A DNA stretch of 64,000 nucleotides, taken from assembly GCA_965229335.1 (NCBI GenBank), contig OZ245874.1:5860736-5924735 (forward strand), in the 5' to 3' direction. Both the position numbers and the translations under genes were made by a program. Below, piece after piece: positions 8,415 through 46,876 of this stretch; within the stretch, counting starts at the first letter, position 1; every line of letters begins with the position of its first letter. The notes below the pieces were generated by a model. It was not told the DNA's origin, did no database searches, and saw only the letters and a program-made list of their open reading frames with translations. The DNA is from Ferrovibrionaceae bacterium (GTDB lineage Bacteria; Pseudomonadota; Alphaproteobacteria; Ferrovibrionales; Ferrovibrionaceae).

Positions 8415-8521
8415 CGGATCGGCCCATCGTTCCATTTTCAGGACGAAACATCGCAGAATCGGAGCGCGCGCGCCATTTTGGCGACGATTAGGCTTGCAAC
8501 CGTCACAACAGGGGGAAAGCG

Positions 8522-9820: not shown

Positions 9821-9831
9821 AGGAGATACCG

Positions 9832-10977: not shown

Positions 10978-10984
10978 GCGCGCG

Positions 10985-11917: not shown

Positions 11918-11983
11918 CCGCCACGGCTAATGGCGAGACGGCGACGTTGCCGTGAACCGCATCGGCCATGCTAGTCTCGCCGC

Positions 11984-12940
11984 ATGACCGATATCGACCT
12001 GATCGTCCTGAAAGAGGCGAGTCCCGCGGCGGTGGGGGTCAGTATCGAACTTCTCGACATGGTCAACCGGCTGGGCGGACAGCGGTTGCTGAACTGGCGG
12101 ATCCTCAGCCCGTCCGGTGCCCAGGCCACGCTCGGCGGCGGCATGTTCATGGCGGCCCAGCCGCTGGTGCGGGCGCAGGCGCGCGACATCGTCATCCTGC
12201 CCGGTCTCGGCACCGAGACGGAGATGGCGGCCCGCATCGCCGAACCCGATGCGGTAGGGGCGGCACGCTGGGTGGCGCGGGCCTGGGCGCGCGGGGCGAC
12301 CGTCGCCGCCTCCTGCACCGGCGTCTTCGTGCTCGGCGCAGCCGGTCTGCTGGACCGGCGGCACTGCACGACGGCCTGGTGGCTGGTGCCCGCCCTGCAG
12401 GCCGCCTTCCCCGACGCGCGGGCCACCGCCGACGCGATGGTGACCGAGGACGAGCGGGTCTGGACCGCCGGTGCGGCACTTGCCCATCTCGACCTGATGC
12501 TGGCGCTGGTCGGGCGTTTCGTCGGGCCGGCGCTGGCCGACAGCGTCGCCAGGCATCTGCTGGTCGACCGGCGCGCCTCGCAGGCACCCTATGTCATGCC
12601 GGCCCGGCTTGCCGCGCACGACCCGCTGGCCTGTGCGATCGAGACCGCGGTGCGCGAACGGCTGGCCGGCCCGATCGCGCTGTCCGACCTGGCCCGGGCC
12701 GCCGGAGTCTCCCCCCGCACCCTCGCCCGCCGCATTCAGGCCGCGACCGGCCTGTCGCCGATGCGATTCGTGCAGAAGATCCGCCTCGACACCGCCTTGC
12801 AGCTGCTGCAATCGACCGGGCTGTCGCTGGAGGCGATCGCCGACCGGCTGGGCTTTGCCGACGCCGCCACCCTCTATCGTCTGGTGCGCCGCCACACCGG
12901 CCAGCCGCCCAGCGCCTTCCGCAGGCCCGAGCGCTACTGA
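11984..12940 (+). CDS. GlxA family transcriptional regulator (DJ-1/PfpI-like domain + AraC HTH)
   Basis: 318 aa. The N-terminal DJ-1-like domain includes ASCTGVFVLG. The C-terminal AraC-type double HTH reads LARAAGVSPRTLARRIQ ... IADRLGFADAATLYRLVRRHTG. Confidence 0.8.
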   Translation: MTDIDLIVLKEASPAAVGVSIELLDMVNRLGGQRLLNWRILSPSGAQATLGGGMFMAAQPLVRAQARDIVILPGLGTETEMAARIAEPDAVGAARWVARAWARGATVAASCTGVFVLGAAGLLDRRHCTTAWWLVPALQAAFPDARATADAMVTEDERVWTAGAALAHLDLMLALVGRFVGPALADSVARHLLVDRRASQAPYVMPARLAAHDPLACAIETAVRERLAGPIALSDLARAAGVSPRTLARRIQAATGLSPMRFVQKIRLDTALQLLQSTGLSLEAIADRLGFADAATLYRLVRRHTGQPPSAFRRPERY

Positions 12941-13836
12941 CCCAGGCTGCGGGCGAAAGCGCCGGGGGTGATGCCGAAGGCGGCCTTGAAGCGGCGGCCG
13001 AGGTGGCTCTGATCGACGAAACCGACCGCCACCGCCACTTCCGCCACCGGTTCGCCGGCTGCGATCAGCCGCCGCGCCTCGGCCAGCCGGAGGCGCGACT
13101 GGTAGGCATGTGGCGGCAGGCCGTAGCGGCGCTGGAACAGCCGGCTCAGGTGAAACCGGCTCAAGCCGGCCTCGGCGGCCAGGCGATCGAGGGTCAGCGG
13201 CTCGGCATATTCGTCGGCGATCAGCGCGTGGACGCGGGCCACCGCGTCGCGGTCATCGCCGCCGCGGGCGAAGCCCGGCCGCCAGTCGGCATGCCGCCCG
13301 GCGAGGCCGGTGACCACCTCGATCAGCGCCGCGTCGCGGGCCAGCGGCTCGGCCGTCGCCTCGGCAAAGCGCCGGTGCAGCCGCAGGATCGCGTTGCCGA
13401 GCAGCGGGTCGTCGATCACCGGCGCCCGCGCCCAGGGCAGGCCGGCCGGGCGCTCGGCCGCGTCCGACAGCACCGCCTGCACCGTTCCGGGCGTCAGGTA
13501 GATCATGCAGTAGGTGAAGCCGGCCTCGTCCAGCGCGTGCCCGTCATGGGGTTCGTCGGGGTTGAAGGCCATGATCTGGCCCGCCGCCGAGACATGGCCC
13601 GCGCCGCGGCAGGAGAAGGCCTGCGCCCCGGTCTCGGTCACCCCCAGGCAATAGGCGTCGTGGGCGTGGCGGGCATATTCATGGCTGACATAGCGGGCCT
13701 GGAGCACCTCGATGCCCTGGCCGGGCAGTGCCCGATAGCGCGTCCATTCGCCTGAAGCGGCCAATCCGGAAAGCCCCTGCGCAAGAATGTACAAGCGGGC
13801 CCGAGCGCCCGCCTCCACTTTAGCGGGGTTCGTCAC
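12934..13836 (-). CDS. AraC family transcriptional regulator (cupin-like N-domain)
   Basis: 300 aa. The C-terminus LDRLAAEAGLSRFHLSRLFQRRYGLPPHAYQSRLRLAEARRLI ... GFVDQSHLGRRFK is a canonical AraC HTH pair. Its 3' end overlaps the convergent GlxA gene by 7 nt. Confidence 0.85.
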   Translation of the reverse strand: MTNPAKVEAGARARLYILAQGLSGLAASGEWTRYRALPGQGIEVLQARYVSHEYARHAHDAYCLGVTETGAQAFSCRGAGHVSAAGQIMAFNPDEPHDGHALDEAGFTYCMIYLTPGTVQAVLSDAAERPAGLPWARAPVIDDPLLGNAILRLHRRFAEATAEPLARDAALIEVVTGLAGRHADWRPGFARGGDDRDAVARVHALIADEYAEPLTLDRLAAEAGLSRFHLSRLFQRRYGLPPHAYQSRLRLAEARRLIAAGEPVAEVAVAVGFVDQSHLGRRFKAAFGITPGAFARSLGQ

Positions 13837-33135: not shown

Positions 33136-33223
33136 GGAGGGATGGCCGAGCGGCTTAAGGCGCACGCCTGGAAAGCGTGTTCACCGAAAGGTGTCGAGGG
33201 TTCGAATCCCTCTCCCTCCGCCA
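33136..33223 (+). tRNA. tRNA-Ser (anticodon GGA)
   Basis: Folded by hand. The acceptor GGAGGGA pairs with TCCCTCC, and the anticodon arm is CACGC-CTGGAAA-GCGTG. It has a long variable arm (TCACCGAAAGGTGTC), T arm GAGGG-TTCGAAT-CCCTC, discriminator G and an encoded CCA. Confidence 0.9.
33207..33223 (+). repeat. attL core: TCCCTCTCCCTCCGCCA (3' end of tRNA-Ser)
   Basis: Identical to 41198-41214. The flanking bases differ on both sides. Confidence 0.85.
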
Positions 33224-33313
33224 GCCATAGCCAAGCCCTTGATATCTCATCAAGTTCTTGGAATCCCTGGCTAATTTCTTCTCGTTACTCCATTGGACTG
33301 TTACAGTGGAGAC

Positions 33314-35044
33314 ATGGAGAAGATGCCCGGACATCCCCGTCTGTATCGTCGTGGCGCGGTCTATTGGCACCGCGCCGCCGTACCCGTCGACATTGCCGAT
33401 ACCTACCCGAAAACCGAGGAAACGTTCTCCCTTCGGACCAAGGACCGAAACGAGGCCCTGAAGCTCGTTCGGATCGAGGCGGCGCGGGTGGATCGCCTGT
33501 TCGACGAACACCGCAAGCGGGTGGCGGCGGCGGCGGGGCCGACCGTGGACGAATTGACCGATGCCCAGGTCAAGGCGATCGGCGAGGCGTACTATGCGAT
33601 GCTGCTGCAAGAGGACGATGCACGGCGCCTCAGGGAATTCGAAGGGAAGTCATTTGAGGAGCATTTAGAGGACATCGCGGGCCTATCCGCTGTCGCTCGC
33701 CACGAGTTTGCGCGCGGAGAAATTAGCGACTTCGACGCCGACGAGGCCGAAGATTTCATGGCCTCCGACTGGGTGGGCGTGAAGCTGTCACCAGATAGCC
33801 CGAGCTGGCCCCGCGTCGCCCGCGAGATGAAAGCCGCCCGCATCCGGGCCTATGCGGCCAAACAATCCCGGAGCGACGGCGAACCAGTACCTACCCCTGA
33901 ACCGCCGCCGCCTTTGTCCTCACGCCAGAAGGCGCGCGGGTCAAGCCGCCTGCTGTCCGATGAGGTCAAGGATTGGATGGCCGAGAAGACCCGGACTTCA
34001 TGGGTCCCGAAGACCGAGCATGAACACCGCGTATGGATGGGGCATTTTATCACGATCGCGGGTGACAGGCCGTGGCTGGACTACAACAAGGCCGACGCGC
34101 GGGCCTTCAAGGCCGTCTTGATGCGCCTCCCCGCCAACTGGAACAAGTTCGACGCGCTGGCCCCCCTGGGGATCGCAGAAGCGTCCGACCGAGCCCATGA
34201 GCTTGGCTTACCGCCCATGTCCGAAAAGAACCTGAACAAGCTCCTGGGGTATGTCGGGTCGTTCTGGACCTGGGCGAAGGACAATCACGACGACTGCCCC
34301 GAAAACCCGTTCAGGGGCCTCAAGCTCAAACTCAAGGGCAAGAACGTCCGCGATGAGCGCCACCCGTTCACCCTCGACGAACTGAAGGCGATCTTCCGCG
34401 CACCTATCTTCACAGGCTGTAAATCAGCAACCGAATGGGCAGCGCCGGGCGCTTTTGTACCCCGCTCCGCGGGCATCTTCTGGGTGCCTCTCATAGGCCT
34501 CCTGACCGGCGCGAGGCTCGGCGAAATCATCCAACTCCGAACGTCGGACGTTCGCGCGGATCAGGGCATCACGTATCTGGACCTCAACGACGACGGCGAA
34601 GACAAGCGCCTCAAGACCGCCCACAGCAAGCGGATGGTCCCGATACATGCCGAGCTTGTTGCGGCTGGCTTCCTTGAGCTTGTCGATCAGCGCCGCCGGG
34701 CTGGCCAGGAACGGCTATTCCCTGACCTGGGGATGGGGGCGGACGGGTACTATTCGTCGCCGTTCTCGAAGCATTTCAGCCGTTTCCTGACCCGTGTCGG
34801 GGTCAAGACCCGGAAGAACGCCTTCCACTCGTTCCGGCATTGCTTTGAGGACGCCTGCCGTGACAGCGACATCTCCAAGGAGGTCATGGACGCCCTTCAG
34901 GGGCACGGCGAGGAAGGCATGTCGGGGCGGTACGGGCGTGGGTATGTCCTGAAGAAACTGGCCGAGGCGATGGGGCGCTTGCGATACGACGGGCTCGACT
35001 TATCGCACCTTCACATTCGTCAAGCGGGGGATGAGAGGCGTTGA
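33314..35044 (+). CDS. int: Tyrosine-type site-specific integrase (large, with an N-terminal extension typical of alphaproteobacterial island integrases)
   Basis: The C-terminal catalytic region reads GARLGEIIQLR ... HSFRHCFEDACRD ... LQGHG ... GRYGRGY (R...HxxR...H...Y). Its position next to the tRNA supports the call. Start at ATG 33314 or nearby. Confidence 0.9.
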   Translation: MEKMPGHPRLYRRGAVYWHRAAVPVDIADTYPKTEETFSLRTKDRNEALKLVRIEAARVDRLFDEHRKRVAAAAGPTVDELTDAQVKAIGEAYYAMLLQEDDARRLREFEGKSFEEHLEDIAGLSAVARHEFARGEISDFDADEAEDFMASDWVGVKLSPDSPSWPRVAREMKAARIRAYAAKQSRSDGEPVPTPEPPPPLSSRQKARGSSRLLSDEVKDWMAEKTRTSWVPKTEHEHRVWMGHFITIAGDRPWLDYNKADARAFKAVLMRLPANWNKFDALAPLGIAEASDRAHELGLPPMSEKNLNKLLGYVGSFWTWAKDNHDDCPENPFRGLKLKLKGKNVRDERHPFTLDELKAIFRAPIFTGCKSATEWAAPGAFVPRSAGIFWVPLIGLLTGARLGEIIQLRTSDVRADQGITYLDLNDDGEDKRLKTAHSKRMVPIHAELVAAGFLELVDQRRRAGQERLFPDLGMGADGYYSSPFSKHFSRFLTRVGVKTRKNAFHSFRHCFEDACRDSDISKEVMDALQGHGEEGMSGRYGRGYVLKKLAEAMGRLRYDGLDLSHLHIRQAGDERR

Positions 35045-35374
35045 GCCTGTTCCACACGGACGAGACGCCCGGTATTGTCACGTGGAACCGATCAACTGCA
35101 CGGCGGCCCCGTGAGCCGGGCTCAGACACGTCGGCGGTGGGGCAGTTCGGCCACGGGCTGCCCTGATCGGTTCGGATGGTTGGCGCGCTGCATATGTCCT
35201 TCAGATCGAAGGAAAATCCGGGGATACCCAGGACCGCCGCAGAGGCCCATACAGGCACATGGACGGCCCGCCGCAAGGGCAGTAGCGGACAGCGGCAAGA
35301 TGGGCACTGACGGAGTCCGCAGAGGCCCTAGCGGCGATCTATGCGGCGGTCATTCGGATTTGCAGAAAAGGGCT

Positions 35375-35500
35375 TTAGGACGGGAAGACGCGATCCGTCA
35401 GGAACACGAGAATGACCAGAAGCATCACAAAGGCGGCACCTAGCATCCATCGTATCTGGCGCAAGCTTCGGCGGATTGCTTGGAATTGATCCTCTTCCAT
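35375..35500 (-). CDS. 41-aa hydrophobic mini-protein (below the track's length cutoff)
   Basis: My translation is MEEDQFQAIRRSLRQIRWMLGAAFVMLLVILVFLTDRVFPS, with one TM helix. GGAGG lies 6 nt upstream of the ATG. It overlaps the weak track ORF 35328..35687 in another frame. Confidence 0.4.
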   Translation of the reverse strand: MEEDQFQAIRRSLRQIRWMLGAAFVMLLVILVFLTDRVFPS

Positions 35501-36044
35501 GCTGGCCTCCGTGGTTGAGGTCGAGGCGACGATACCAGAACTGCCCCGCCGGTCCTACGGCCGGAGAGATAACCTCGATACCGGCCGCCTTGCCGATCGC
35601 CAAGATGATCTCCTCGGCCAGCTCGGGCTTGAACGCGACGCCGGGCTTCATCGGGCGCATTTCGCCATCCGAGACGGGAGCGAACAAGCGGACATGGATA
35701 CCCTATCCGTAGGAATGACTTACCCCTCCAGGAAGTCCGAGACGAAGCGGTTCCAGCGATCTATTCGACCGTCGAGGAATATTCCGCGCCCATCACCGCA
35801 TTGATGCGCACCGGGTTAATTCAGCTTCATGTGAGTGGCGGCGCTTGGGGCGGGGGCGGCGGCGCCAGCTACAATTTCACGCCCTTGATGGCCCGGCTCG
35901 CCGCGCTTGCACCGTTTGATCATCTGGCGTGATCAGCCGTTCAGTATGCGCGCAGTGCTGGAGCAAAACCATACGGCCCCCGTCATCTGACCCATGGACC
36001 ACGGTCGGCCCATAGTCCGCCTCAGGTCAAACCGAGGAGGACCC

Positions 36045-36158
36045 ATGATCAAGATCAGGAAACTAAAGCTGGGCACGGTGCTTCTGGTGGTCGCCCTTCC
36101 GGCCGTCACCGCCCATCTGTTCGACAAGCTGTCCGTCGTCGTGATGATCGTCGTGTGA
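36045..36158 (+). CDS. 37-aa hydrophobic mini-protein (below the track's length cutoff)
   Basis: My translation is MIKIRKLKLGTVLLVVALPAVTAHLFDKLSVVVMIVV. GAGGAGG lies just upstream of the ATG. Confidence 0.4.
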   Translation: MIKIRKLKLGTVLLVVALPAVTAHLFDKLSVVVMIVV

Positions 36159-36286
36159 ACCGGGCAGAGGGACGCAGGGATGGCCGATCGCTGTCCCTAC
36201 GGTTTCCCGGTCGGGCGGGGGCGGTGGTGGGTCGTGGTCGAGGACGATATGCAGGCTGGCTTACGGCTTCTACTACGCTCGGGGAA

Positions 36287-36348
36287 ACCTGAAGTCATAC
36301 CCTAAGGGTACCTGAAGGTATCCCTTCGGTACGACCTCCACAGGTACC
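36287..36348. repeat. Cluster of phased GGTAC/GGTAT motifs (starts 36307, 36317, 36328, 36343) plus a direct repeat ACCTGAAG(T/G)(C/T)AT(A)CC
   Basis: Read directly. The spacing is 10, 11 and 15 bp. The cluster sits just 3' of the polymerase-like gene. Further GGTAC copies lie at 37742 and 38046 in island intergenic DNA. Confidence 0.55.
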
Positions 36349-36379
36349 ATTCCCAAGCATGTCATATGGAGGATACCGC

Positions 36380-37648
36380 TTAGGTGACCTTCAAGACTGC
36401 GTTGGTCCCGGTGATGGCTCGGTACTTGTCGGAGAGGACCGCCACCGCCCTCTCAAGGTTCGACCTGGGCACCACCAGGGCATCATGAACGGGTAGCGCC
36501 ACCACGCTCTCATCACCGAGCGCCAGCAAGGTAGCAACCATGACCGTCGCCTCCGTCTTCATTGCCTTGAGCCCCGCGCCGGTACCGAAGAGGCTGGCTA
36601 TCGGCTTGTGTCTTTCAGTCAGAAGCTTGGTGACGAGGTCGATGGTCGCATGCCGCGGAAGCAGGGCCTTGGTGCCGCCAGGGAGCCGCCATAGGGGCTT
36701 CGTCGTCGACAGCATCGCGTTGAGGACTTTCTTCAGCCCCTCGCGTCGCCCTTGGAAGCTCGGATCGTCGACCGCATAGGCGTCCTCATCGGCCGGGAAT
36801 TCCAGCCCTGCGCCAGCGTAGACGAACCTGACCGCCGCTGATCGCATGTCGACCTCACCGACCTCCTCGCCGCCGATACGAAGCTTCGACAACCGATCGT
36901 CTCCGCTCATGTTTTGCCAGAAGGCCCCGTAGAGGCGCCCGCCGTGGTCAAAGTCGACGTTGAACACCCGACGCATGGACCGGGTGCCGACATGGGGGCG
37001 GGTGATATCCCGAAGGTCCGCGACGGCCAGCCGGCGGTTGATGGTCTGCATTTCCTCGCGCCAACGGGTCGTGTCTGCGGTCTCCTCATAGTCGACCTCC
37101 GCCCCCGTCTCGCCGTTGACCTTCTCGGCCCGGAGGATGATGGTCTCCCCCTTCTGGCTGTCTGCGAAGTCGTCGGCGGTGAGCCCTTCGCTCGCCAGAA
37201 GCCCAGCCATCGCCGGGCCGGCGCTCATGACCGACTGTCGGCGCTCTTTCCGTGGCCTGTGGATTCCCTGCGGGGCGACAGTCGAAACCAGGAAGCCGCA
37301 CGCCGGGTCACTCAGTAGGTCGACGATGCCCGGGAGCTGAGTATTGAGCGCCGGGGCCTTGTAGCGGTCGCGGCTACCGAGGAAGCCCAAAGCGCGCGGG
37401 TAGGTGACGGCAAGGTCGGGCTCGGTGAGATACACCCGTGCCAATTCCGATACGATCGCTTCGACGGTAGCGCGGAAGGTTGCCTCATCGGCCGCCTTAC
37501 GAGCCCGCTGGCGGGGTTTCACGGATGGCTCGGCGCCGAGGGCGCGGGAAACGATGAAGGCCACCAGCGAGGCCCCAGCGGGCGACGCGGGGCGGTACCA
37601 GCCGGTGAACCAATGGTCACGGTCTTCGGGATCGATAAGGGGGCTCAA
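36380..37648 (-). CDS. Orphan 422-aa protein with family-A (PolA-like) polymerase motifs; candidate minimal polymerase/replicase
   Basis: Hand alignment to Taq/Klenow. GGRLYGAFWQNMS matches TGRLSSSDPNLQNIP, and VGEVDMRSAAVRF matches motif A (VALDYSQIELRV). RREGLKKVLNAML matches motif B (RRAAKTINFGVLY). GTGAGLKAMK...LPVHDALVV matches QGTAADLMK...QVHDELVL (motif C). Both metal-binding Asp are present (D267, D389). Confidence 0.55.
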   Translation of the reverse strand: MSPLIDPEDRDHWFTGWYRPASPAGASLVAFIVSRALGAEPSVKPRQRARKAADEATFRATVEAIVSELARVYLTEPDLAVTYPRALGFLGSRDRYKAPALNTQLPGIVDLLSDPACGFLVSTVAPQGIHRPRKERRQSVMSAGPAMAGLLASEGLTADDFADSQKGETIILRAEKVNGETGAEVDYEETADTTRWREEMQTINRRLAVADLRDITRPHVGTRSMRRVFNVDFDHGGRLYGAFWQNMSGDDRLSKLRIGGEEVGEVDMRSAAVRFVYAGAGLEFPADEDAYAVDDPSFQGRREGLKKVLNAMLSTTKPLWRLPGGTKALLPRHATIDLVTKLLTERHKPIASLFGTGAGLKAMKTEATVMVATLLALGDESVVALPVHDALVVPRSNLERAVAVLSDKYRAITGTNAVLKVT

Positions 37649-38338
37649 GGGGCCTCGTAGCGGGGTTCTGTCTGGGGTCAGGGGGATATGCCAGGCGCCT
37701 CAAAAGGGACCAGGTCAAGGGAGGCGATGGAGAACTGGAGGGGTACCGTGGGGCCGGACTGTTCCGTCTGGGTTGCGTCTAGTTTTCTAAATTTGCCTTG
37801 CCGGCCCGCCTAAGGTTCGTCCGTTGTCGCGCCATGCGGTGTTCTGTCTAACGTGCGTCCTTTGTCGCCCCCCTCTAACGCGGGGATAGTTTCGACCTCG
37901 GGGTTCTCGTTACTCGCGGTGGGTGCTTCGTCATCGCCTGCGTCATATGTGGGTCCGGTATCGGCAGCCGGTTCATCCGCTTCATTCCCCGACCGATGCA
38001 CTGCCGATAGCCGGCTTTGGCGATGACCGTAAAGGGTCCTAAAGGGGTACGCCGGGATGGTGCGCAGTGGCGTCAGCCACATAAATGATTGTTATAATAT
38101 GACCAAAAGGAGAAATTTCCTATGTGAAGTATCTCCATCGCGGCCAACCACCCCCGCCGACCGCCTCAGGCCCCCATACAGCCGCCTCGGCCCCGCTCCG
38201 CCGCCCACCCTAAGCCGCCCCATGAAACCCGCCCAGCGGCCTCCCAGGGGCGCCTACGGGCACGCTGCGGGAGACTATCGGGGACCAGAAAGGGCCGCCA
38301 AACAGCAGCCCTCGTAATCGTCCCCTCCCCGCCTCAGT

Positions 38339-38896
38339 TCACGCCCTCCCGATGATGCGATAGACCGACGACCGACCAATCCCGAGCCGCTTAGCGATTT
38401 CCGCAACGGGGACCTTCTCGGCATGCAGGGCCTCGACCTCCGCCGCCTTGGCCGTCGCCGTGGGCTTGCGGCCCTTGTACTTCCCCTCGCTCTTGGCCTT
38501 CGCGATGCCCTCACGCTGCCGCTCAAGCATCATCTCCCGCTCGAATTGGGCGATGGAGCCGAGAAGGTTCACCATGAGCTTCCCTGTGGGTGTCTCCGTA
38601 TCGAGGTTCATTGCGAGAACCCGAAGGCTCGCCCCCCTCTCGGCAATCTCGCCGACGATCCGCGACAGGTCGGCCACCGACCGGGCCAAGCGGTCCAGCT
38701 TGGTCACCACCAGCACGTCACCATCCCGGAGATAGTCGAGGGCCGCTTCTAGCTCCGGGCGCTTCCCCTGCGACGAAACCTGTTCGCGGTAGAGCTTCGT
38801 TGCCCCTGCGGCCTTCAGGTCCCGTATCTGGGCCTCAAAGCCCGCTTCCTGTTCCACGGTGCTGGTCCGCGCGTACCCGATCACCATGCCCGTCAT
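38339..38896 (-). CDS. Small serine recombinase (resolvase/invertase family)
   Basis: MVIGYARTSTVEQEAGFEAQIRDL...VVTKLDRLARSV...FEREMMLERQREGIAKAK plus the C-terminal HTH VAEIAKRLGIGRSSVYRII. The catalytic Ser is in YARTST. Start at ATG 38896 or 38887. Confidence 0.9.
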   Translation of the reverse strand: MTGMVIGYARTSTVEQEAGFEAQIRDLKAAGATKLYREQVSSQGKRPELEAALDYLRDGDVLVVTKLDRLARSVADLSRIVGEIAERGASLRVLAMNLDTETPTGKLMVNLLGSIAQFEREMMLERQREGIAKAKSEGKYKGRKPTATAKAAEVEALHAEKVPVAEIAKRLGIGRSSVYRIIGRA

Positions 38897-39950
38897 GTCT
38901 GCCCCCACATTCCCAATGAAATCTTAGACATAGTGGTGAATAATGCTCCAAAATGCAATACCCATTTATTTGGGGCATGATTTGGGGCGTCGGACCAAGG
39001 CCCGCAGGACCAGGGTCTATTGGGAATGGGGAGGCTGGGGATGGTTGGGCGCGCTCGACGCAACCCTGCCCTCAATCCCCCAGGTTGACCCAATGTCTCC
39101 CGATGGACGGCCCGCGCCCCGTGACCAGTCCAGCGCTTCCGCCCGAATGCGCACCGTCCTTCAGACCGCTCCTTGCCCGCGCATGGCTCCCTCGCCGTCA
39201 CGCCCGCGGTCGACCGATCGGGAACCCTCAGAAAATTCAGGCCGGGCGATCGGTACCCCCGGGGTGTGCCGGCGGGTGGGGGTCTTTCAAAAAGACCGCT
39301 AAAGCTCCGCGCGCGCGGTTAATTTTGGGTCAGACCTTCGGCAGTGAGGGCGGCCCCGGAAAAAGCAGAGGTAGCGACGGGGGGATGACTTTCGGCGTAG
39401 ACTTGATTATACTTAGCTGCCCTTAGGCCGGGAGCCCCTGTGGCCGAGAATTACATCTCGCGCAAAAGCAGGCCCCTCCCTCATGGAATATGAAAAAGGA
39501 CGAGGCGATGTTGAACATCGTTCTCCAAGTAGACCTGAACTCAGTTCTGGTTGCGTTGGCGTTTGCTATTAGCTTGAAACGCTAGTCGGGCTGGGGAGGT
39601 GGGTCGCCTGCCTCCCCATCTTACCAGTCCGCCTCCGCGCTACATGCGCCCCATCTCCTCGCGGCACCCATCCGTCCGCGCAAGAGCCCTATGCATTTAC
39701 CTGGAGAAGCGCGACGGCTATATGACCGGTCGCTGGCGTATCGAGGTCAGTCCACCCTACCAGCCCAGGCGCGCGCCGAGCGTGCCCGGACCTACCGTCC
39801 GCAACCTCAGAAACCGGTAGAGGCAGCAAGTGGAAGCGTCGGATTGGCCACGGGAATGCAAGAACTCGTTGTCGAGCCCAAGGAGTTCGTTGGCCTATTC
39901 GGCGACGCCCCAGCCCACTAACCGTCACAGTCCAAAATCAGCAAAACAAG

Positions 39951-40907
39951 CTAGTCATCTTTGTTGACGACGCCACCACAATAATCACACAAAGCATGAT
40001 TATCATAATAGGCATTATTAGGGGTGATTTCGACACCACACCTTATGCAATCCTCAAGAACATAGCCACACCATACGCATCCAACATATTCACCATCCAT
40101 AACATAGGTTCCAAGAGCGCACTCCGGGCAATCTTGAACATGTGGATTACCGCCATCCTTCGCAGCCATGTAATTCTCAACTGCGAAAGGTGTATCAAGA
40201 GAATGAACAAATATGTCCTTGGCGCTATTTTCCTCGCTACAAGAGCGACACCTGAATTCGGCTGACTGAAAATCATCGTTATCTGGGTTGACCTGTGCGA
40301 CTAACCGCGACCCACAATCCACGCAGACCAGATCAATCCCAGAAAGATAATCGACTGGCTCCCATGTGAAATTGCTCATAGTCGCCTTGCACTCGATCAA
40401 CTCTTTCTCAAACAGCAACTTTACTGCTTCGAGTTCCGCCCATGTTTCACCCAGTTCAATTTCTGGATTAAGCTTCATATGTCTGAACAGCAAAACGACA
40501 ACAGGGAATGCCTTAACGATCGCCTCGCGTACTGCAGGTTGCGTGGCTTGAGTATAAGCATGCTCAATGTCATTCCTAACCTCATTTAATGAGGTCAATA
40601 GCTTTCTATCGATTTCAATGCGAAAATCATTCAAGCGCTCGTTTATAGTTTCAAAGTCGAGCGTCTTTTTTCCCTTAGCTTTAATCTCCACCTTGCCGTC
40701 GCCATTCAATACGATCTTAAGATTAGAAGCCAGGATTATTTTTGCACTCTCATTGGGAGTAGCTCGAACCAACGTTTCTTTGGCGAGCAACAGAAGCCCA
40801 GAGTAGAAATTCCGTACAGCCGACAGCGGGCGCTTAGGATCATTTGATTTGTAATCCTCAAGCCCGAGCTGAATTGACTGGATAGCGTTGTCGAACAACG
40901 AGTTCAT
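39951..40907 (-). CDS. AT-rich orphan: predicted HEPN-like helical domain (Rx4H motif) fused to three C-terminal CxxC...CxxC zinc ribbons
   Basis: The N-terminal ~150 aa are all-helical with LNEVRNDIEHAY (R126-x4-H131 in track numbering). The C-terminus has CVDCGS..CRSCS, CPECAL..CVWCGY and CIRCGV..CDYCGG. The start is uncertain (ATG 40907, 40919 or 40952). Composition is far more AT-rich than all surrounding DNA. Confidence 0.6.
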   Translation of the reverse strand: MNSLFDNAIQSIQLGLEDYKSNDPKRPLSAVRNFYSGLLLLAKETLVRATPNESAKIILASNLKIVLNGDGKVEIKAKGKKTLDFETINERLNDFRIEIDRKLLTSLNEVRNDIEHAYTQATQPAVREAIVKAFPVVVLLFRHMKLNPEIELGETWAELEAVKLLFEKELIECKATMSNFTWEPVDYLSGIDLVCVDCGSRLVAQVNPDNDDFQSAEFRCRSCSEENSAKDIFVHSLDTPFAVENYMAAKDGGNPHVQDCPECALGTYVMDGEYVGCVWCGYVLEDCIRCGVEITPNNAYYDNHALCDYCGGVVNKDD

Positions 40908-41197
40908 GATGTCACCCATTATTATGGTGCAACGCAAAAACTCTGGACGCATTCAAGCGAGGCACCGCCGAAGCGGCTACTTCTCCATTTTGCACACCGC
41001 AACCGCCACCGCGCAAGCGGCTGGATATCCAGATTGTCGAACCGCCGAAAAGAGGGAGCCGCCACCTTCCGTCTACTCCGGATTAATGTTTGCCTCCAAC
41101 CCGCTTGCGGGCTGTTACAGTGAGATGCTACATCTAAGGCTCGGACAACGAGCGTAGAATGGCGGAAATCCTAGGGTTTTGACTCCTCTCACGAGGT

Positions 41198-41214
41198 TCC
41201 CTCTCCCTCCGCCA
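41198..41214 (+). repeat. attR core: TCCCTCTCCCTCCGCCA (17-bp copy of the tRNA-Ser 3' end)
   Basis: Read directly. Only the last 17 nt of the tRNA are duplicated, so this is not a tRNA gene. Confidence 0.85.
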
Positions 41215-41255
41215 CGTCCACTCTGGACACTGGCCGCTTCCGTCCCCGACCCCCT

Positions 41256-42149
41256 TTACCGTTTGAAGCAGTTCTCCCGATGCCAGGCCAGGAAATCGGG
41301 GTGAGGCCGTTCGGCTGGCCGCAACGGGGCAAAGGCACGCCCGCTTCTGTTGATGAAGCCGCGCACCCCGTCGGGATCGTTCACCTGGCGAGAGATCAGG
41401 ATTTCCAACTCGTTGCTCAGGCTGATCAGGCCACGGTCGAACATCCAGTGCGCGGTGCCTGAAAGCGCGATGCCATTCGAAACCGCGTCGGGACCGTCAT
41501 GCTCGACCGGGCGAATATGCGCGGCATCGACCTCGGCGCGTCCGCCGCCATTGATCAGTTTAAGGCCGCTGATCGCGCAGCGTTCGTCATAGGCGCGGAG
41601 CACGACACGCCGGAAATTGCGGTCACGCACCGCACGGGTGGCAATGAAACTGACGCGGTCGCGCTGTTGGACAAAGGGAGCGCGCTCGTCGTTCAACCCG
41701 AGCGGCGGCAGGGCTTCGCCGAGCCGCGGCAGCAACGGTTCGTGATCGTCGAGGCCCAGCCCGACGATGCGATTGAAGTCCTCGGCCGAAATCGGTCGCA
41801 CCGCCGCCTGGGCGCGGCCGGAAAGCCGGCCGGTGTCATTCAGCAAGCCGCGTTCGATGACACCATCGGGGCCGGTAAAGGGGACGGGATTGGCAAAATC
41901 GAGATAGCTGCCCGGCTCGATATGCGCGAGATACATGCCGGAGACCTTGGGATCCGGACTGATCCGGCTGACCCGCGCCACCGCAAAATAGCCGCGCGTC
42001 CGCGCGACCTTGGCCGGCTCGAGGTACAGGATCCAGTCGCCTTCGCTGGCCCGGGCACGGCCAAGATACTGGCTGGGGAACTGATAGCGCGCGGCGGGGC
42101 TGTCGTCGTAGATCGAATCGGCGCGGTGGATGAAGACCCCGTATCCCAT
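41256..42149 (-). CDS. HNH endonuclease (HNH_2/COG3440-like) with an N-terminal PUA/EVE-like domain; candidate modification-dependent (type IV) restriction enzyme
   Basis: The C-terminus YDERCAISGLKLINGGGRAEVDAAHIRPVEHDGPDAVSNGIALSGTAHWMFDRGLISL is an H-N-H core. The N-terminal ~150 aa (ARYQFPSQYLGRA...GDWILYLEP...GYFAVARVSRI) resemble PUA-like reader domains. Assigned from memory. Confidence 0.65.
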   Translation of the reverse strand: MGYGVFIHRADSIYDDSPAARYQFPSQYLGRARASEGDWILYLEPAKVARTRGYFAVARVSRISPDPKVSGMYLAHIEPGSYLDFANPVPFTGPDGVIERGLLNDTGRLSGRAQAAVRPISAEDFNRIVGLGLDDHEPLLPRLGEALPPLGLNDERAPFVQQRDRVSFIATRAVRDRNFRRVVLRAYDERCAISGLKLINGGGRAEVDAAHIRPVEHDGPDAVSNGIALSGTAHWMFDRGLISLSNELEILISRQVNDPDGVRGFINRSGRAFAPLRPAERPHPDFLAWHRENCFKR

Positions 42150-42383
42150 TCAACCTGTATAGCGCGGCAGGCGCGCCGTCTCACGCCCGAAAATGCCGCG
42201 CCCCGCCCGATGGCCGGTATGAAGCCGGTCGCGCATGGCCAGATGCTGTGCTCGATCGCCACCGCCATTGGGCGGGCCATGCGTTCGCCTATGCCGCAAT
42301 GCGCCTGCATGATCCGGTCGGCGAAATCGGCGGGATGTCCGTCACGAAGCCGCCCATGAAGGCACGCTACCCGTCAAGCCGGG

Positions 42384-42416
42384 AAAAAAAAGGGGGGACG
42401 CCGTCAGGCGCCCCCC
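42384..42416 (-). terminator. Rho-independent terminator downstream of the secreted-protein gene
   Basis: The minus strand reads GGGGGGCGCC-TGAC-GGCGTCCCCCC followed by T8. That is a 10-bp stem with one G-U pair and a U-tract. Confidence 0.75.
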
Positions 42417-42439
42417 GAAGAAAGACCGGCAGCAGGTCG

Positions 42440-43399
42440 TCAGTTGCCGCGCAGCCGGGCGGCAAGCGCCGTCACGGCGTCGGTCAAGGCCGGGTCGGCG
42501 GGAACGGCGTCGGCCCCGGCCGAGGCCAGCGCATCGGCGGCAAGCTTGGCCGTCTCGACCGCACCGGGCGCGGCATTCGCCACGATGTCGGCGGCACTGC
42601 CTGCCCCGAACAGATTGGCTTCGCCGGCGATCGCCGCCCGAACCCCCTGGACGCGATAGCGCGTGCCGCTGCCCGGCGTCAGCCAGTACTGGCCGCGGAA
42701 TTCGTTGGTCGGCATCGAGATCAGATAGGTCTCGGTTATCGTCGATCCGACATAGATCAGCAGACACTGACCCGCGAAACTGCCGGAAGTGTAGCATTCG
42801 CCGGCATAACCGCTCGGCGCGCAGGAGACGAAACCGGTACCGCCCGAATTGACCGGCGAGCCGACCGTCGAGCACCGGACGATGCCGCCATAGCTGCTGG
42901 AATAGGTCGGCGAGCCGATCGAATAGGCGAACGCCCATTGGCCCAGCAACGGATTCTGGGAATCGGAGAACGTATAGCGGGACAGCGGGATCATGGCCGA
43001 TCCGCCCGAACCGAAAGGCCCGCTGGAGCCAAGCGACAGGGTCGCCCTGCTGGCGGTGCTGAAGGTCAGCGTTGCCGTGCCGGCCGAGGTACCTGCCGGC
43101 GATGTCATGGCACAGCCCAGACACTGGCCGCCGCTGTACTTGGTGAGGTTTGCCGAGAACGTCGGATAGCCGGACCCGTTCAACGAGTATCCGCCCGTGG
43201 CGTAGTACCAGACCGGCGCCAGGCTGCCGGTCTCATAGACGTAGATGATCAGCGTCATCTGCGTCCCCTGTTGCTCGATCGAATAGCCGCGCCCGCCCTC
43301 GCTCGGGTTGAAATAGATACCGCTTTCGATCAGCGCGGCACTGGCGGTGCCAATCCACGCACACAAAAAGCCCGCCAGAATTCCCAATAATACACGCAT
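42440..43399 (-). CDS. Secreted Cys-containing Gly/Ser/Tyr-rich protein of unknown function
   Basis: The signal peptide is MRVLLGILAGFLCAWIGTASA. It has 8 Cys in the mature part (GQCLGCAM, VRCS, VSCAP, GECY, GQCLL) and an Ala-rich C-terminal tail. No family recognised. Confidence 0.6.
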   Translation of the reverse strand: MRVLLGILAGFLCAWIGTASAALIESGIYFNPSEGGRGYSIEQQGTQMTLIIYVYETGSLAPVWYYATGGYSLNGSGYPTFSANLTKYSGGQCLGCAMTSPAGTSAGTATLTFSTASRATLSLGSSGPFGSGGSAMIPLSRYTFSDSQNPLLGQWAFAYSIGSPTYSSSYGGIVRCSTVGSPVNSGGTGFVSCAPSGYAGECYTSGSFAGQCLLIYVGSTITETYLISMPTNEFRGQYWLTPGSGTRYRVQGVRAAIAGEANLFGAGSAADIVANAAPGAVETAKLAADALASAGADAVPADPALTDAVTALAARLRGN

Positions 43400-43693
43400 T
43401 GTAATCCTCCCTCTTTTCCGATTCTCAGCATAACAGTGTGCTTTAGGGGAGTCAGGCCATGATGATGGTTAATATGAGAGCACTATGTTGAGTTTATATT
43501 TCTGTATCGATGAAATATCGGCACAGTTGTATTTTAATAGGTGCATTTTTATGGATAGAAGCGCGGCAATCCGCCAAAAATCTGGCAACCGAACGCGACG
43601 CCGCCAGCAGCCGGCGGCGATGGAAGCCTCGTCCTGAGGTTGCACGGTGCTGTGGCCTGGCTATCGCTGCGACGGCCGGGCCGGCTGGTGCGC

Positions 43694-43885
43694 CTATTTC
43701 TGCGACTTGTCCGTCGACGCCGGTGGCGACCACTTGCCGGCTTCCATGTCGGCCAGCGCGCCAAGGAGCACGCGGCGCAGGAAATCGCCTTGCCGGGTGT
43801 CGCCGCGCTGCGCGTCGATCCGCGCCTTGGTACCCTCGGGGGCGCGGATGAAGACGTCTTCCGTGTAGAGCTTCGGCTTGGGCAT
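43694..43885 (-). CDS. Ribbon-helix-helix (Arc/CopG-like) small DNA-binding protein
   Basis: Internal ATG 43885. MPKPKLYTEDVFIRAPEGTKARIDAQRGDTRQGDFLRRVLLGALADMEAG fits a beta-strand/helix/helix RHH pattern. Weak assignment. Confidence 0.45.
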   Translation of the reverse strand: MPKPKLYTEDVFIRAPEGTKARIDAQRGDTRQGDFLRRVLLGALADMEAGKWSPPASTDKSQK

Positions 43886-44117
43886 TGCCCTTCGTTTAGC
43901 CTGCGACTCACCGCTAGCGCAATCGGTCATATCGTCCGTCCCCCGCGTCAATGCGGCATTAATCGATAGCGCAATCGCTTATTGACGTGATTAAGCGCTA
44001 GCACTTATAGTGTCGACCCGAGCTTTGCAGCCAGAGGCCCTATCCCATGCGCAGCACCGCAGGGCTGATGCCCACGGCATGACCGGACCCGACCCGTCAT
44101 GCAGGCCGCACCGGCGG

Positions 44118-44651
44118 TCAATCAAGCGCCGCGGCGGCGGGCCGCGCCCCCTTGCGGCGCGAGGCCGCCCGGTCGGCGCCATAGCCGAGCAGGTCGTTCG
44201 GCGACAGGTCGAGCGCACCGCACAGCGCGTGCAACATGGCCAGGCCCGGCTCGTTCCGGCCGCGGGCATAATGGCCATAACGCGTCGTGCTGATGCCCAG
44301 CCGGCCAGCCAATTCGGTATCGGTCAGTCCCTGGCGCAGGCTGAGCGCGCGCAGACGCCGACCGAAGCTTTCGGCATCGAGCGCGATGTCGTCGGCCGTG
44401 CTGTCGCGCATCGCGGCCTGGATCATCTCGCCAGCCTCCATCCCCGCCGCGGCGGCCAGCGCCTCGAGCGTGCCCGACGGAATTTTGCCACCATTGAAGG
44501 CCGCCGAGACGACGCCATAAGGCAAGCCCGCGAGTTTTGCCCAATTTGCCCGCGTCTTAAGCAGAGACTTCTTTTCCGTAAGCACCTTTCGCAGCGCGAA
44601 AGCAAAAATGGCTCCGCCGGCGTCCCGGCGGATCTGCCTGCTTTTTGTCAT
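44118..44651 (-). CDS. XRE (Cro/CI) family transcriptional regulator, apparently with two HTH-like halves
   Basis: ATG 44651 is preceded by GGGGGAG. The C-terminal half FGRRLRALSLRQGLTDTELAGRLGISTTRYGHYARGRNEPGLAMLHALCGALDLSPNDLLGY is a classic XRE HTH. The N-terminal half (ALRKVLTEKKSLLKTRANWAKLAGLPYGVVSAAFNG) looks like a second, degenerate copy. Confidence 0.75.
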   Translation of the reverse strand: MTKSRQIRRDAGGAIFAFALRKVLTEKKSLLKTRANWAKLAGLPYGVVSAAFNGGKIPSGTLEALAAAAGMEAGEMIQAAMRDSTADDIALDAESFGRRLRALSLRQGLTDTELAGRLGISTTRYGHYARGRNEPGLAMLHALCGALDLSPNDLLGYGADRAASRRKGARPAAAALD

Positions 44652-44890
44652 CACAACAAACTCCCCCACGACCACTAAAAAATCTACTTCAAGGTATTTC
44701 AATACGCAAATATTATTATGCATGACGTTTTTTGGTTGTGCCAAACATTCATTAAGCAATGGTCTTGAATAATTTCACTACTTATTAGGGTGATTTGTTG
44801 ATGACAAAATGCGCATTGATGCTCGCCATACGATTGCGGAAGTGCGCGGGCTGGTAGCAGGCGCAGGATTGCGGACGGACGACTGGCGAC

Positions 44891-45880
44891 TTAGTCGAAG
44901 ATGCGGTCCGCCGTCTGCAGGGTCAGCGGAATCTCCACCCCCAGGGCTCGGGCGGTGGCGAGGTTGATCCAGAGCTCGACCACGGTGGGTTGCTCGACCG
45001 GCAGGTCGGCCGGCGTGGCGCCGTCGAGGATGCGGCGCACGAAATACCCGGCCCGTCCCAGCAGCTTGCCCGGCACCGGGCCGAAGCCGAGCAGGCCGCC
45101 GATCTCGGCGGCCGGCGGATAGGGTGCGAAAAACGGCAGGCGGCGCGAGAGGGCGAAGGGCGCGATCCGGTCGCAGAGGTCCAGGCTGGCTGCGTCCGCC
45201 AGCAGGTGGAGGGCGTCGAGATCCGCAGCGGCCAGGGTCGCGAGCGCGGCATCAAGGTCGCCGGGCAGGCGGACCGCTGCCGGGACCACGGCGATACCGT
45301 GGCCGGTCGCGCCGGCCTGCAAGCCCGCCAGCATGCCCTGGTTGCTCGGGTTCGCCGGGTTGAGCACGACGCCGATCCGCCGCGCCCGCGGCACGATCTG
45401 GCGCTGGAAATCGAGCATCTTCGGCGTCATGTCCTCGATCTGGGTGGCGATGCCGGTGGTCTGGCCACCCGGCCTTGCCAATGTCGCAATCAGCCCGGAT
45501 TCGACGGGATTGTTGATCCCCAGCATCACCACCGGGCGGGTGGGCAATGCGGCCTGGGCCGCGCGCACCCCGGCGATCGTGTTGGCCAGGATCAGCGCGG
45601 CGCCGGACGCTGCCAGACCTTGCGCCAGCGGTCCGAGCCGCTGGTAGTCACCCCCGGCATAGTGGACGTCGAGCTGATAGTCGCGGCCGTCGCGCAGGCC
45701 GGCGTCGTGCAGGCCCTGCCCCACGATCGCGGTCGTCGCATCGGTGAAATAGGCCCCCTTGCTGCCCGCGAGCAGCAGGCCGAGCCGCGCCGGCGCGGCC
45801 CCGGCGGCCCGGGGACAGGCCGTGGCGGCGATGGCCGCACCGAGCCGCGCCAGGAGGATCCTGCGTCCGATTCCCGTCAT
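44891..45880 (-). CDS. ABC transporter substrate-binding protein (PF04392-like ABC_sub_bind family)
   Basis: 329 aa with a signal peptide carrying RR (MTGIGRRILLARLGAAIAATA). The general pattern resembles this family. From memory. Confidence 0.6.
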   Translation of the reverse strand: MTGIGRRILLARLGAAIAATACPRAAGAAPARLGLLLAGSKGAYFTDATTAIVGQGLHDAGLRDGRDYQLDVHYAGGDYQRLGPLAQGLAASGAALILANTIAGVRAAQAALPTRPVVMLGINNPVESGLIATLARPGGQTTGIATQIEDMTPKMLDFQRQIVPRARRIGVVLNPANPSNQGMLAGLQAGATGHGIAVVPAAVRLPGDLDAALATLAAADLDALHLLADAASLDLCDRIAPFALSRRLPFFAPYPPAAEIGGLLGFGPVPGKLLGRAGYFVRRILDGATPADLPVEQPTVVELWINLATARALGVEIPLTLQTADRIFD

Positions 45881-45895
45881 CGATGTTGCTCTGTC

Positions 45896-46876
45896 CTAGT
45901 GGTCGCGCAGCCTGGCACCGCCCGCGGCGCGCCAGGCGCGCGGCGACAGGCCGAAGCGTTCCTTGAACGCGCGGCTGAAATGGGCGAGGTCGTTGAAACC
46001 CCAGAGGAAGGCGATCTCGCCGATCTGCAGATGCGCCTGGACCGGTGCCACGAGGCTGCGCCGGCACTGGTCGAGCCGGCGGGCAAGCAGGTAGCGGCGG
46101 AACGACGTCCGCTCGTCGGCCAAGAGGTCGTTGACGTAACGCGGCGACAGGCCGAGGCCCGCCGCCACCTGCCCGATACCAAGCTCGGCCTCGGCCAGAT
46201 GGGCCTCGATATAGGCTTTCAGCCGGTAGAGCATCGCGGCACGATGCGTGGTGGTGGCGCGGGCGCCGGCGGTCAGCCGGTCGGACAGCATCGCGCCGAG
46301 CAGGTCGATCGCCTGGCCCGACAGCCGCGCCGCCACCTCGTCGCCGACCGTGCCGGCGGTGCGCGCGACGCCGCGCAGGAACTCGGCGGTCAGCCGTTCC
46401 AGCGGCCGGGCGGCGGCGTCGCCGGCGGCAAAGGTCGTCGCGGTCAGCCGTTCGGTGTCGCCGACGCGCCGCAACAGTTCGGCCCGCGGCAGTTGGATGA
46501 CCATCTGGCTGAAATCGCCGTCGAACTGCAATTCATAGGGCCGGGTGGTGTCGTAGAGGGCGAACTGGCCGGGTTCGATCAGCGCGTCGCGTCCGTCCTG
46601 GACCACACCGCCGCTGCCCGCCAGGCCGAGTGCGACCAGCACGAAGTCCTCGTGGGCGCGGCGGATGCGGGCGGGCGTGCGAAACACGCGCTGGCGCGAC
46701 GAGACCACCTCGGTGCATTGCAACAGGCCGAGGTCGCGGCGATCGATCGCCCCGCGAAAACTGTCGCCGGCATCCGAACGGCAGTCGAGCTGGACGAAGA
46801 CGTCGCAGACGATGTCCTGCCACAGCGCCAGGCGCCGCGAAGGCGGCGTGCCGTCGGTATCGAGCCGGGTGAACAT
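45896..46876 (-). CDS. AraC family transcriptional regulator
   Basis: The long N-terminal part of the track ORF is antisense to the nitrilase gene and was rejected. The real protein starts near MFTRLDTDG (ATG 46876; alternatives 46909 and 46921). The C-terminal HTH pair is VAAGLGLSPRYVNDLL ... IAFLWGFNDLAHFSRAFKERFG. Confidence 0.8.
   Translation of the reverse strand: MFTRLDTDGTPPSRRLALWQDIVCDVFVQLDCRSDAGDSFRGAIDRRDLGLLQCTEVVSSRQRVFRTPARIRRAHEDFVLVALGLAGSGGVVQDGRDALIEPGQFALYDTTRPYELQFDGDFSQMVIQLPRAELLRRVGDTERLTATTFAAGDAAARPLERLTAEFLRGVARTAGTVGDEVAARLSGQAIDLLGAMLSDRLTAGARATTTHRAAMLYRLKAYIEAHLAEAELGIGQVAAGLGLSPRYVNDLLADERTSFRRYLLARRLDQCRRSLVAPVQAHLQIGEIAFLWGFNDLAHFSRAFKERFGLSPRAWRAAGGARLRDH

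Follow-up and report, generated by a model that had tools for sequence, protein, structure and literature searches.

The TV-Pol family of minimal family-A DNA polymerases (Iyer, Abhiman & Aravind 2008, Biol Direct 3:39, PMC2579912) was defined by a beta-hairpin carrying an invariant arginine, a palm with two catalytic aspartates, fingers with an aspartate and an RxxxK motif, and no nuclease domain; the thumb consists of two antiparallel helices, or an N-terminal helical domain, TV-PolN, is found. A subset of the family is linked to gamma-delta resolvases, lambda-type integrases or transposases, and lies in hot spots with restriction-modification operons (PMC2579912). Here we describe a compact 8.0-kb island with a predicted polymerase of this family at positions 33207-41214 of a 64,000-nucleotide stretch of a Ferrovibrionaceae bacterium genome (GCA_965229335.1, contig OZ245874.1; the whole stretch is referred to below as the window). 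The island lies at the 3' end of a tRNA-Ser(GGA) gene and encodes a tyrosine integrase, the 422-aa TV-Pol-type protein, a small serine recombinase and a candidate defence protein (Table 1).

The island is like the elements described in 2008 in that its polymerase is of the minimal PolA-like kind, 400-600 aa long and free of a nuclease domain, and has a lambda-type integrase and a gamma-delta-type resolvase in its neighbourhood. Those elements too are found at hot spots, together with restriction-modification and other mobile genes and mostly in Alphaproteobacteria, and the Bro-N gene of the Brucella element is also found in a sister island of the one studied here. Unlike the 2008 prediction, which was of replicative transposons with direct repeats of ~200 nt in Brucella, the present island and 25 other loci that we surveyed are integrative islands at tRNA 3' ends, with att repeats of 16-45 bp and a backbone plus a defence slot. 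Protein divPolA2 of the barbaviruses (Yutin et al. 2024, Virol J 21:200, PMC11348598) is of the same kind: it is ~430 aa long, with active-looking palm motifs A-C, no exonuclease domain and a globular N-terminal domain of a novel type. The phage copies stand beside a regular PolB, whereas the island gene is chromosomal and accompanied by no other replication gene.

Three further systems share parts of this design. In the CCPol-MP-Cch2 module of SCCmec (Bebel et al. 2020, eLife 9:e55478, PMC7581432) an exonuclease-less A-family polymerase is also island-encoded and adjoins a serine recombinase. Its gene was listed as a TV-Pol by Iyer et al. (PMC2579912); CCPol is an active polymerase, acts as a primase with its partner MP, and CCPol-MP is the only TV-Pol that has been assayed (PMC7581432). 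SCCmec differs in that integration is carried out by the large serine recombinases CcrAB/CcrC rather than by a tyrosine recombinase, and the window island has neither a Cch2-type helicase nor a gene like that of MP or a single-stranded DNA-binding protein (SSB; OB-fold). Pipolins (PMC11551731, PMC5695915) resemble the island in their integration at tRNA 3' ends between direct repeats, their tyrosine recombinase, their own polymerase, resolvase-like serine recombinases, a core with exchangeable defence cargo, and integrase swapping. They differ in hosts, in integrase family (DUF6538 here) and in the polymerase, which is the primer-independent piPolB in pipolins and a family-A TV-Pol here; as no PolB domain was found in any island ORF by Pfam, NCBIfam or PHROG searches, the island is not a pipolin by definition. 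The integrase-plus-defence islands at tmRNA or tRNA genes that jumbo phages transduce (Zhao et al. 2025, PNAS, PMC12595487) and the tDNA islands of Islander (PMC4383910) have direct repeats of the tDNA 3' end, an integrase adjoining the tDNA, defence cargo and no autonomous transfer genes, as does the present island; a polymerase or resolvase is not mentioned in their description.

The boundaries of the island are defined to the base. A preliminary description of this DNA had proposed an 8-kb integrative island in tRNA-Ser(GGA), which ARAGORN found to be the sole tRNA in the window, and had noted that the last 17 nt of the tRNA recur exactly between non-matching flanks. Both statements were borne out. 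The 17-mer, TCCCTCTCCCTCCGCCA, is present in two exact copies that enclose an interval of 8,008 bp, with mutually dissimilar sequences outside them; no further match was found in the window when up to three mismatches were allowed, and for up to two mismatches 0.03 matches would be expected in the window by chance. In the whole genome (7,149,050 bp) the word occurs only twice, at the two ends of the island, and is thus not the frequent genomic word that would have spoken against integration. The repeat was taken to be 17 bp long because a second copy of the 25-nt word from the tRNA 3' end was not found. The integrase was said to start 91 bp past the tRNA; there is indeed an ATG there, at 33314, within a frame open from 33293, and the start supported by the homologue, where the alignment with its relative described below begins, is likely at 33323. 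As in the Islander definition, the tyrosine integrase adjoins the intact tRNA on the same strand, and a displaced copy of the 3' end marks the far boundary. Each non-coding arm next to the cores carries one copy of an 11-mer, CTGTTACAGTG (33298-33308 and 41112-41122), in the same orientation; this word occurs only twice in the window and at the two equivalent positions in a related island, and the copies are candidate arm-type integrase sites. A search for a third, imperfect att copy, which would have moved the right end of the island to about position 45.9 kb, gave none at up to three mismatches, and the stretch from 41215 to 45924 was therefore regarded as a separate variable one. Taken together, these data leave very little doubt that 33207-41214 was formed by site-specific recombination of a tyrosine integrase at the tRNA 3' end.

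The locus was compared with those of G001, a sister species and the sole genome of the same genus that was compared, and of L025 (GCA_037189325.1), a more distant relative; tRNA-Ser(GGA) is 100% identical in both. G001 is 89% identical to the left flank as far as the tRNA, and past it shows 845 bp unrelated to the island, encoding a TacA antitoxin and a GNAT toxin, followed by a homologue of the HNH gene that lies to the right of the island; synteny with the G001 chromosome resumes at window position 45924. As for the empty tRNA-Ser site that had been proposed as a check, the island is missing from this tRNA in G001, but the literal junction 33223|41215 was not seen there, the toxin-antitoxin pair occupying the gap. 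In L025, lepA and the identical tRNA are followed by a 12.4-kb island with the same 17-mer at both ends (18 nt there). The integrase of this island is 86% identical to that of the window at the amino acid level, the 422-aa polymerase 72% and the resolvase 43%. The similarity includes ~99 bp at the attL side (92%) and ~95-112 bp at the attR side (84-87%), and ends at the last base of the repeat. The integrase, the 37-aa membrane mini-protein, TV-Pol and the serine recombinase form a backbone conserved with the sister island, as are both arms, while the cargo differs; it occupies a slot bounded by the 39177-39384 block on one side and the attR arm on the other. This conserved frame around an exchangeable slot parallels the layout of pipolins (PMC11551731) and of the islands of Zhao et al. 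(PMC12595487). In L025 a Bro-N gene is found beside the polymerase and resolvase genes.

The composition of the interior was also confirmed to be unlike that of the flanks. The G+C content of the island is 60.1%, against a genomic value of 68.1%; it thus ranks among the lowest 0.5% of 8-kb windows, and its tetranucleotide distance is ~6 standard deviations above the mean of random windows. Positions 40000-41000 have only 45% G+C.

The 422-aa protein was modeled by AlphaFold2 with a pLDDT of 91 and a pTM of 0.86. When the model was compared to the PDB by Foldseek, the best 50 matches were all family-A DNA polymerases (Bst, Taq, Klenow, apPol and others; probability 0.99-1.0, TM-score only ~0.3). 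In BFVD it matched phage proteins of 400-450 aa with TM-scores of 0.5-0.7, among them the 'DNA polymerase' of Rheinheimera phage Barba31A (435 aa, E 2.3e-19, TM 0.54) and others of 416-450 aa (TM 0.59-0.70); tblastn matches were obtained in Vibrio phages. The gene context of the phage homologues was uninformative, as all neighbours are hypothetical proteins. The residues invariant in the family are R227, G236, G237, R238, D267, D289, Y291, R302, K306, H388 and D389. Alignment by hhalign to the polymerase domain of Pol I from this genome and its relatives was collinear, pairing GGRLYG..FWQN with TGRLSS..PNLQN, LDYGQM with DYSQIELR (motif A), RxxxK with motif B, and LPVHDA with VHDE (motif C); its scores were weak, the E-value being 1.4e-4 for an alignment of 33 sequences and 0.027 for one of 188.

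These data were compared with the definition of TV-Pol. A hairpin is formed in the model by strands 226-230 and 236-240, which hold the invariant R227, G236, G237 and R238 and align with TGRLSS of Pol I. The palm has the invariant D267 (consensus LDYGQM) and H388-D389 (LPVHDA); the fingers have the invariant D289, R302 and K306, with RxxxK in helix 302-314. No nuclease domain is present, and a resolvase and an integrase lie nearby. The N-terminal part of the model includes long helices (23-43 and 52-75), and its first 215 aa are mixed alpha/beta. The protein is also like divPolA2 in its palm motifs A-C, its lack of an exonuclease domain and its structural match in a barbavirus. As all four defining sequence features and the matching neighbourhood are found, the protein is, on its motifs and its model, a member of the TV-Pol family, with a predicted polymerase or primase activity.

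Profile searches had given little hint of this. The protein had no match in Pfam, NCBIfam, PADLOC or a PDB profile search, only a family of unknown function in PHROGs, and a search with PF00476 found the host polA alone. A reading of the protein as a rare orphan was rejected: a word-indexed search returned 48 matches and an exhaustive one 11,569 cluster representatives, and the protein is therefore no orphan. Together with the at least 291 homologues of the 333-aa cargo ORF, this overturns the view of the preliminary description that orphans dominate the interior. Its other statement on the interior, that phage structural, conjugation and plasmid replication genes are missing, stood for the first two in Pfam, NCBIfam and PHROGs, but the TV-Pol-type minimal polymerase had been overlooked. 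No capsid, terminase, relaxase, type IV secretion, Rep, primase or helicase gene was found in the island in the same three databases; nor was there any match to a coupling protein, which with relaxase and secretion genes would be expected in an integrative conjugative or mobilizable element. The island may contain a cryptic oriT.

The cargo gene next to attR was identified by PADLOC as PDC-S64. The match to PDLC05058 is full-length, spanning residues 15-325 against 6-300 of the 305 profile positions, and the homologues, of ~317 aa, place the start at 40907. Family-wide invariants are R111, E115 and H116 (RxxxEH) and six cysteine pairs. The protein has a HEPN-like N-terminal domain with an Rx4H motif and three Zn ribbons; the model has a pLDDT of 86, and its HEPN fold matches are weak (2hsb, probability 0.96, TMt 0.69, E 0.66; HEPN toxin 8xdj, TMt 0.57). 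This low-G+C HEPN/Zn-ribbon gene is a recently acquired, exchangeable cargo beside attR. It is a candidate anti-phage gene, of a family that is itself a defence candidate.

Table 1. Features of the tRNA-Ser(GGA) island, in window coordinates.
Feature	Position	Strand	Evidence
tRNA-Ser(GGA), intact target gene, part of attL	33136..33223	+	ARAGORN; Rfam tRNA, 59 bits
attL core, final 17 nt of the tRNA including CCA	33207..33223	+	Exact repeat
Integrase-side att arm, non-coding	33224..33322	+	92% identity to L025; unrelated to G001
Tyrosine integrase with N-terminal DUF6538	33323..35044	+	Pfam DUF6538 2.6e-16, Phage_integrase 6e-8; PHROG 1 integrase
Possible 41-aa single-transmembrane mini-protein, uncertain	35375..35500	-	Codon-position GC fits the frame; not conserved in L025
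Degraded remnant of a gene	35723..35932	+	tblastn 43% over 68 aa, C-terminal part only
37-aa hydrophobic mini-protein	36045..36158	+	GAGGAGG Shine-Dalgarno sequence; GC3 supports the frame
TV-Pol / divPolA2-type minimal family-A polymerase, 422 aa, without exonuclease domain	36380..37648	-	AlphaFold2 (AF2), Foldseek, hhalign
AT-rich non-coding block between recombinase and polymerase genes, promoter-like	38080..38275	.	71-76% identity to L025
Small serine recombinase, resolvase/invertase type, 189 aa	38339..38908	-	Pfam Resolvase 5e-41, HTH_7 1e-9; PHROG 125
Non-coding block upstream of the recombinase gene	39177..39384	.	79-81% identity to L025, indels
PDC-S64 candidate defence protein, 45% G+C	39951..40907	-	PADLOC PDLC05058 2.6e-40
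attR-side att arm, non-coding	41103..41197	+	84-87% identity to L025
attR core, displaced copy of the tRNA 3' end	41198..41214	+	Exact repeat

To place the island among its relatives, species-representative genomes were scanned and 142 TV-Pol loci of this branch were found. The 82 loci analysed comprise 80 from the scan, L025 and a marine metagenome contig, L027; the counts of resolvases and integrases refer to the 82 loci that yielded a TV-Pol ORF, the window's own island included. A tRNA lies within 10 kb of TV-Pol in 45 of the 82, and at 25 other loci direct repeats of a tRNA 3' end, 16-45 bp long, bracket an island of 8-17 kb that includes the TV-Pol gene; the target tRNAs are of many different kinds. 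The usual gene order is tRNA, DUF6538 integrase, TV-Pol, resolvase and cargo. A DUF6538 integrase is present in 46/82 loci and a resolvase in 41/82, mostly upstream of TV-Pol and on the same strand. The cargo of the family includes type I restriction-modification systems, N6/N4 and C5 methylases with Vsr, and AAA_21/AAA_15 ATPases, as well as Schlafen/AlbA_2, Cap15, HNH_2 and Bro-N. No relaxase, capsid, terminase, primase, transfer or packaging family is among the 25 most frequent of the 59 Pfam families in the sister islands.

The anatomy of the locus and the comparison with its relatives show the integration step, in which the DUF6538-type tyrosine integrase would have recombined the 17-bp attP core with the identical 3' end of tRNA-Ser(GGA) (attB), to yield an intact tRNA at attL, a displaced 17-mer at attR and element-specific arms of ~100 bp flanking the core. 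In the life cycle that we propose, the integrase would also excise the island as a circle; TV-Pol would prime and/or copy this circle, a role predicted for TV-Pols and demonstrated for the related CCPol-MP of SCCmec; the serine recombinase would resolve circle multimers; and the HEPN/Zn-ribbon protein would act in defence. Since the island has no packaging or transfer genes, its passage from cell to cell would depend on a helper phage or conjugative element. We assign this full model a probability of about 0.6, with the TV-Pol step, whose role we infer only, as its weakest link.

Several observations weigh against this model, some of which are taken up below with the explanations they favour. 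The circular form and its attP were not seen: the arm motif plus core pattern and a 26-nt arm-plus-core word gave no match in metagenome contigs (two scans), nor did the arm-plus-core pattern among IMG/VR viral contigs (one scan); an exact empty attB was not seen either, and no excisionase was identified in the island. Neither a helicase nor an SSB-like partner of the kind that CCPol needs is encoded in the island, and a D5-type (DUF5906) helicase is present in only 4/82 TV-Pol loci. The replicative role of the phage divPolA2 is itself doubted (PMC11348598). TV-Pol homologues are nearly absent from plasmids: only three weak matches were obtained, of which one is in a chromid-sized record, one in a record of 2.2 Mb and one in a plasmid of 128 kb, and a reading of the protein as a plasmid replicase was rejected.

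The alternative that survives best, though we consider it unlikely, is that TV-Pol and the resolvase are not the replication machinery of the island but a separate selfish or accessory module nested in a genuine integrase island. Such a module could be a resolvase-driven element like the three-gene element of Brucella, a nucleic-acid-synthesising effector of defence or counter-defence, or an RNA polymerase. When 121 genomes of the class were sampled for 20 DUF6538-integrase loci, a tRNA was found to abut 14 of these and a resolvase was present in three, but TV-Pol in none (0/20); TV-Pol is therefore an optional module of such islands. The distances of TV-Pol and integrase are only weakly correlated (Mantel r = 0.13, p = 0.012) and those of TV-Pol and resolvase not at all (r = -0.02), so that the latter pair shows no co-phylogeny. 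Bro-N together with the polymerase and resolvase in L025 makes up the same trio as the Brucella element (PMC2579912), and the phage divPolA2 genes, whose neighbourhoods vary but include a regular PolB, may encode an RNA polymerase or a repair enzyme (PMC11348598). In the family consensus, moreover, motif A is not conserved at the steric-gate position. The polymerase gene is nevertheless found close to the integrase (median distance 1.2 kb, a quarter within ~160 bp), on the conserved side of the island and outside the cargo slot; no direct repeats surround the polymerase and resolvase genes within the island, no PADLOC model matches the polymerase, and CCPol-MP is a proven island primase-polymerase (PMC7581432), all of which speaks against a separate module.

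A fossil would be an ancient integration, inherited vertically after excision was lost, in which only the cargo slot is refreshed by homologous recombination. Compared to L025, the island genes are 74-82% identical at the nucleotide level (integrase 82%, polymerase 74%), about the same as the non-essential chromosomal flanks (76-80%; lepA 93%), and the region 35045-35990, with its gene remnant and weak coding signal, appears decayed; on both grounds the element may be an old, quiescent resident. The failure to find an excisionase fits this picture, as does the fact that the identical 422-aa polymerase is recorded in no other assembly. On the other hand, the ORFs of the integrase, TV-Pol and resolvase are uninterrupted and retain every residue that is invariant in the family, the two att cores match exactly, and conservation is higher in the arms (92% and 84%) than in the neighbouring genes. 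The island is also missing from G001, the closer relative, and must therefore have been gained or lost within the genus. We regard this reading as improbable.

A phage satellite (PICI, P4 or PLE type), dependent on the hijacked capsid of a helper phage, would likewise be compact and tRNA-integrated, with an integrase, a replication-type gene and defence cargo, TV-Pol relatives do occur in large phages, and jumbo phages can move small integrase-plus-defence islands (PMC12595487), but this is highly improbable here, as no AlpA/Stl regulator, terS, Sid/Psu, capsid-remodelling or packaging gene was detected (Pfam, PHROGs, NCBIfam), the IMG/VR contigs lacked the arm-plus-core pattern, and packaging families are missing from the 25 most frequent ones of the sister islands.

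The kind of element described here is already known, from the TV-Pol elements of 2008 and from tDNA defence islands; what is new is an unusually compact and well-delimited member. The island is an apparently intact, cleanly bounded 8.0-kb example of a class that was predicted computationally in 2008 and never put to experiment. With an att system precise to the base and the smallest kind of family-A polymerase, it offers a convenient model for asking whether TV-Pol can prime and copy DNA unaided, how integrase-only islands that lack transfer genes persist and move, and whether PDC-S64 (HEPN plus Zn ribbons) truly acts in defence. The picture drawn in 2008 is also refined by our survey, in that at least this branch of TV-Pol belongs to tRNA-targeting integrative islands with a pipolin-like layout and not to replicative transposons. 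A more tentative suggestion, for which the odds are somewhat unfavourable, is that TV-Pol islands correspond, with a family-A enzyme, to the pipolins and would replicate after excision by means of a self-priming minimal PolA, having no helicase or primase of their own, or else that TV-Pol and resolvase constitute a nucleic-acid-synthesising immune or counter-immune effector built on a PolA palm. If the former is true, these islands form a very large unnamed class of tRNA-integrating platforms of 8-17 kb for exchangeable defence genes.

Two further features of the wider family were observed. Directly downstream of TV-Pol, on the same strand, 23/82 loci encode a protein of ~246 aa without a Pfam domain (median gap 62 bp; for example L074 11331-12071), a possible partner of TV-Pol that is absent from the window island. 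L027 (ENA ERZ10646654 contig_2341) holds at 8420-13719 a tRNA-Leu(TAA), an integrase, a TV-Pol homologue, a DUF5906 helicase and a His-Me endonuclease, the order of the helicase-linked TV-Pol context described in 2008 (PMC2579912).

Minor features of the island were compared with L025 as well. The 37-aa mini-protein retains there its Shine-Dalgarno sequence, ATG and frame, with an in-frame 3-nt indel, and the counterpart of the degraded remnant is intact, encoding 114 aa without a known domain. Between the 37-aa mini-ORF and the 3' end of the TV-Pol gene, 36159-36379 is non-coding, conserved and largely identical in L025, and contains GGCTTACGGCTTCTACTA and GTACCT/GGTATCCC repeats; a convergent terminator or a site resembling an origin may be located there. 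The recombinase start is likely at 38887. The block at 39177-39384, the inner edge of the variable cargo slot, includes an inverted repeat (39193-39220 / 39247-39274) and is a possible res site, origin or regulatory region. A role of the recombinase as a DNA invertase or in a shufflon was rejected, as no convincing inverted repeats surround any segment. An ORF of 90 aa (37810-38082) and others of 119-122 aa within 35075-35687 are unlikely to be genes, since their codon-position GC is flat and they are not conserved in L025. Promoter and terminator scans and Rfam gave nothing useful besides the tRNA.

A second DUF6538 integrase is encoded in the same genome (G000:C1:466999-468334), with 28% identity to that of the island; it adjoins a tRNA-Arg and has neither a TV-Pol nor a resolvase gene within 10 kb.

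To the right of the island, 41 bp outside attR, an HNH_2 nuclease is encoded on the minus strand (41256-42149; PADLOC HNH). Its C-terminal half is like that of restriction endonucleases that bind phosphorothioate DNA (NCBIfam NF045808, 107 bits, below the cut-off). The gene is found beside the tRNA-Ser locus in both G001 (80% nucleotide identity) and L025 (77% amino acid identity), and was therefore assigned to a chromosomal hot spot and not to the island. It is the first gene of the second variable stretch (41215-45924, 65% G+C), which extends from attR to the point where G001 synteny resumes and which also encodes a 319-aa protein with weak genomic paralogues, an 85-aa ORF and an XRE-type HTH regulator (44118-44759). 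AT-rich gaps occur near 43400 and 44700, and the stretch contains neither an integrase nor an att copy. The gap between the tRNA or attR and the HNH gene is a toxin-antitoxin slot: at 41 bp it is empty in the window genome, while in G001 (contig C767; L023 14170-14981) it holds TacA and the GNAT toxin, and in L025 (2571-3277) a PhdYeFM-PIN pair.

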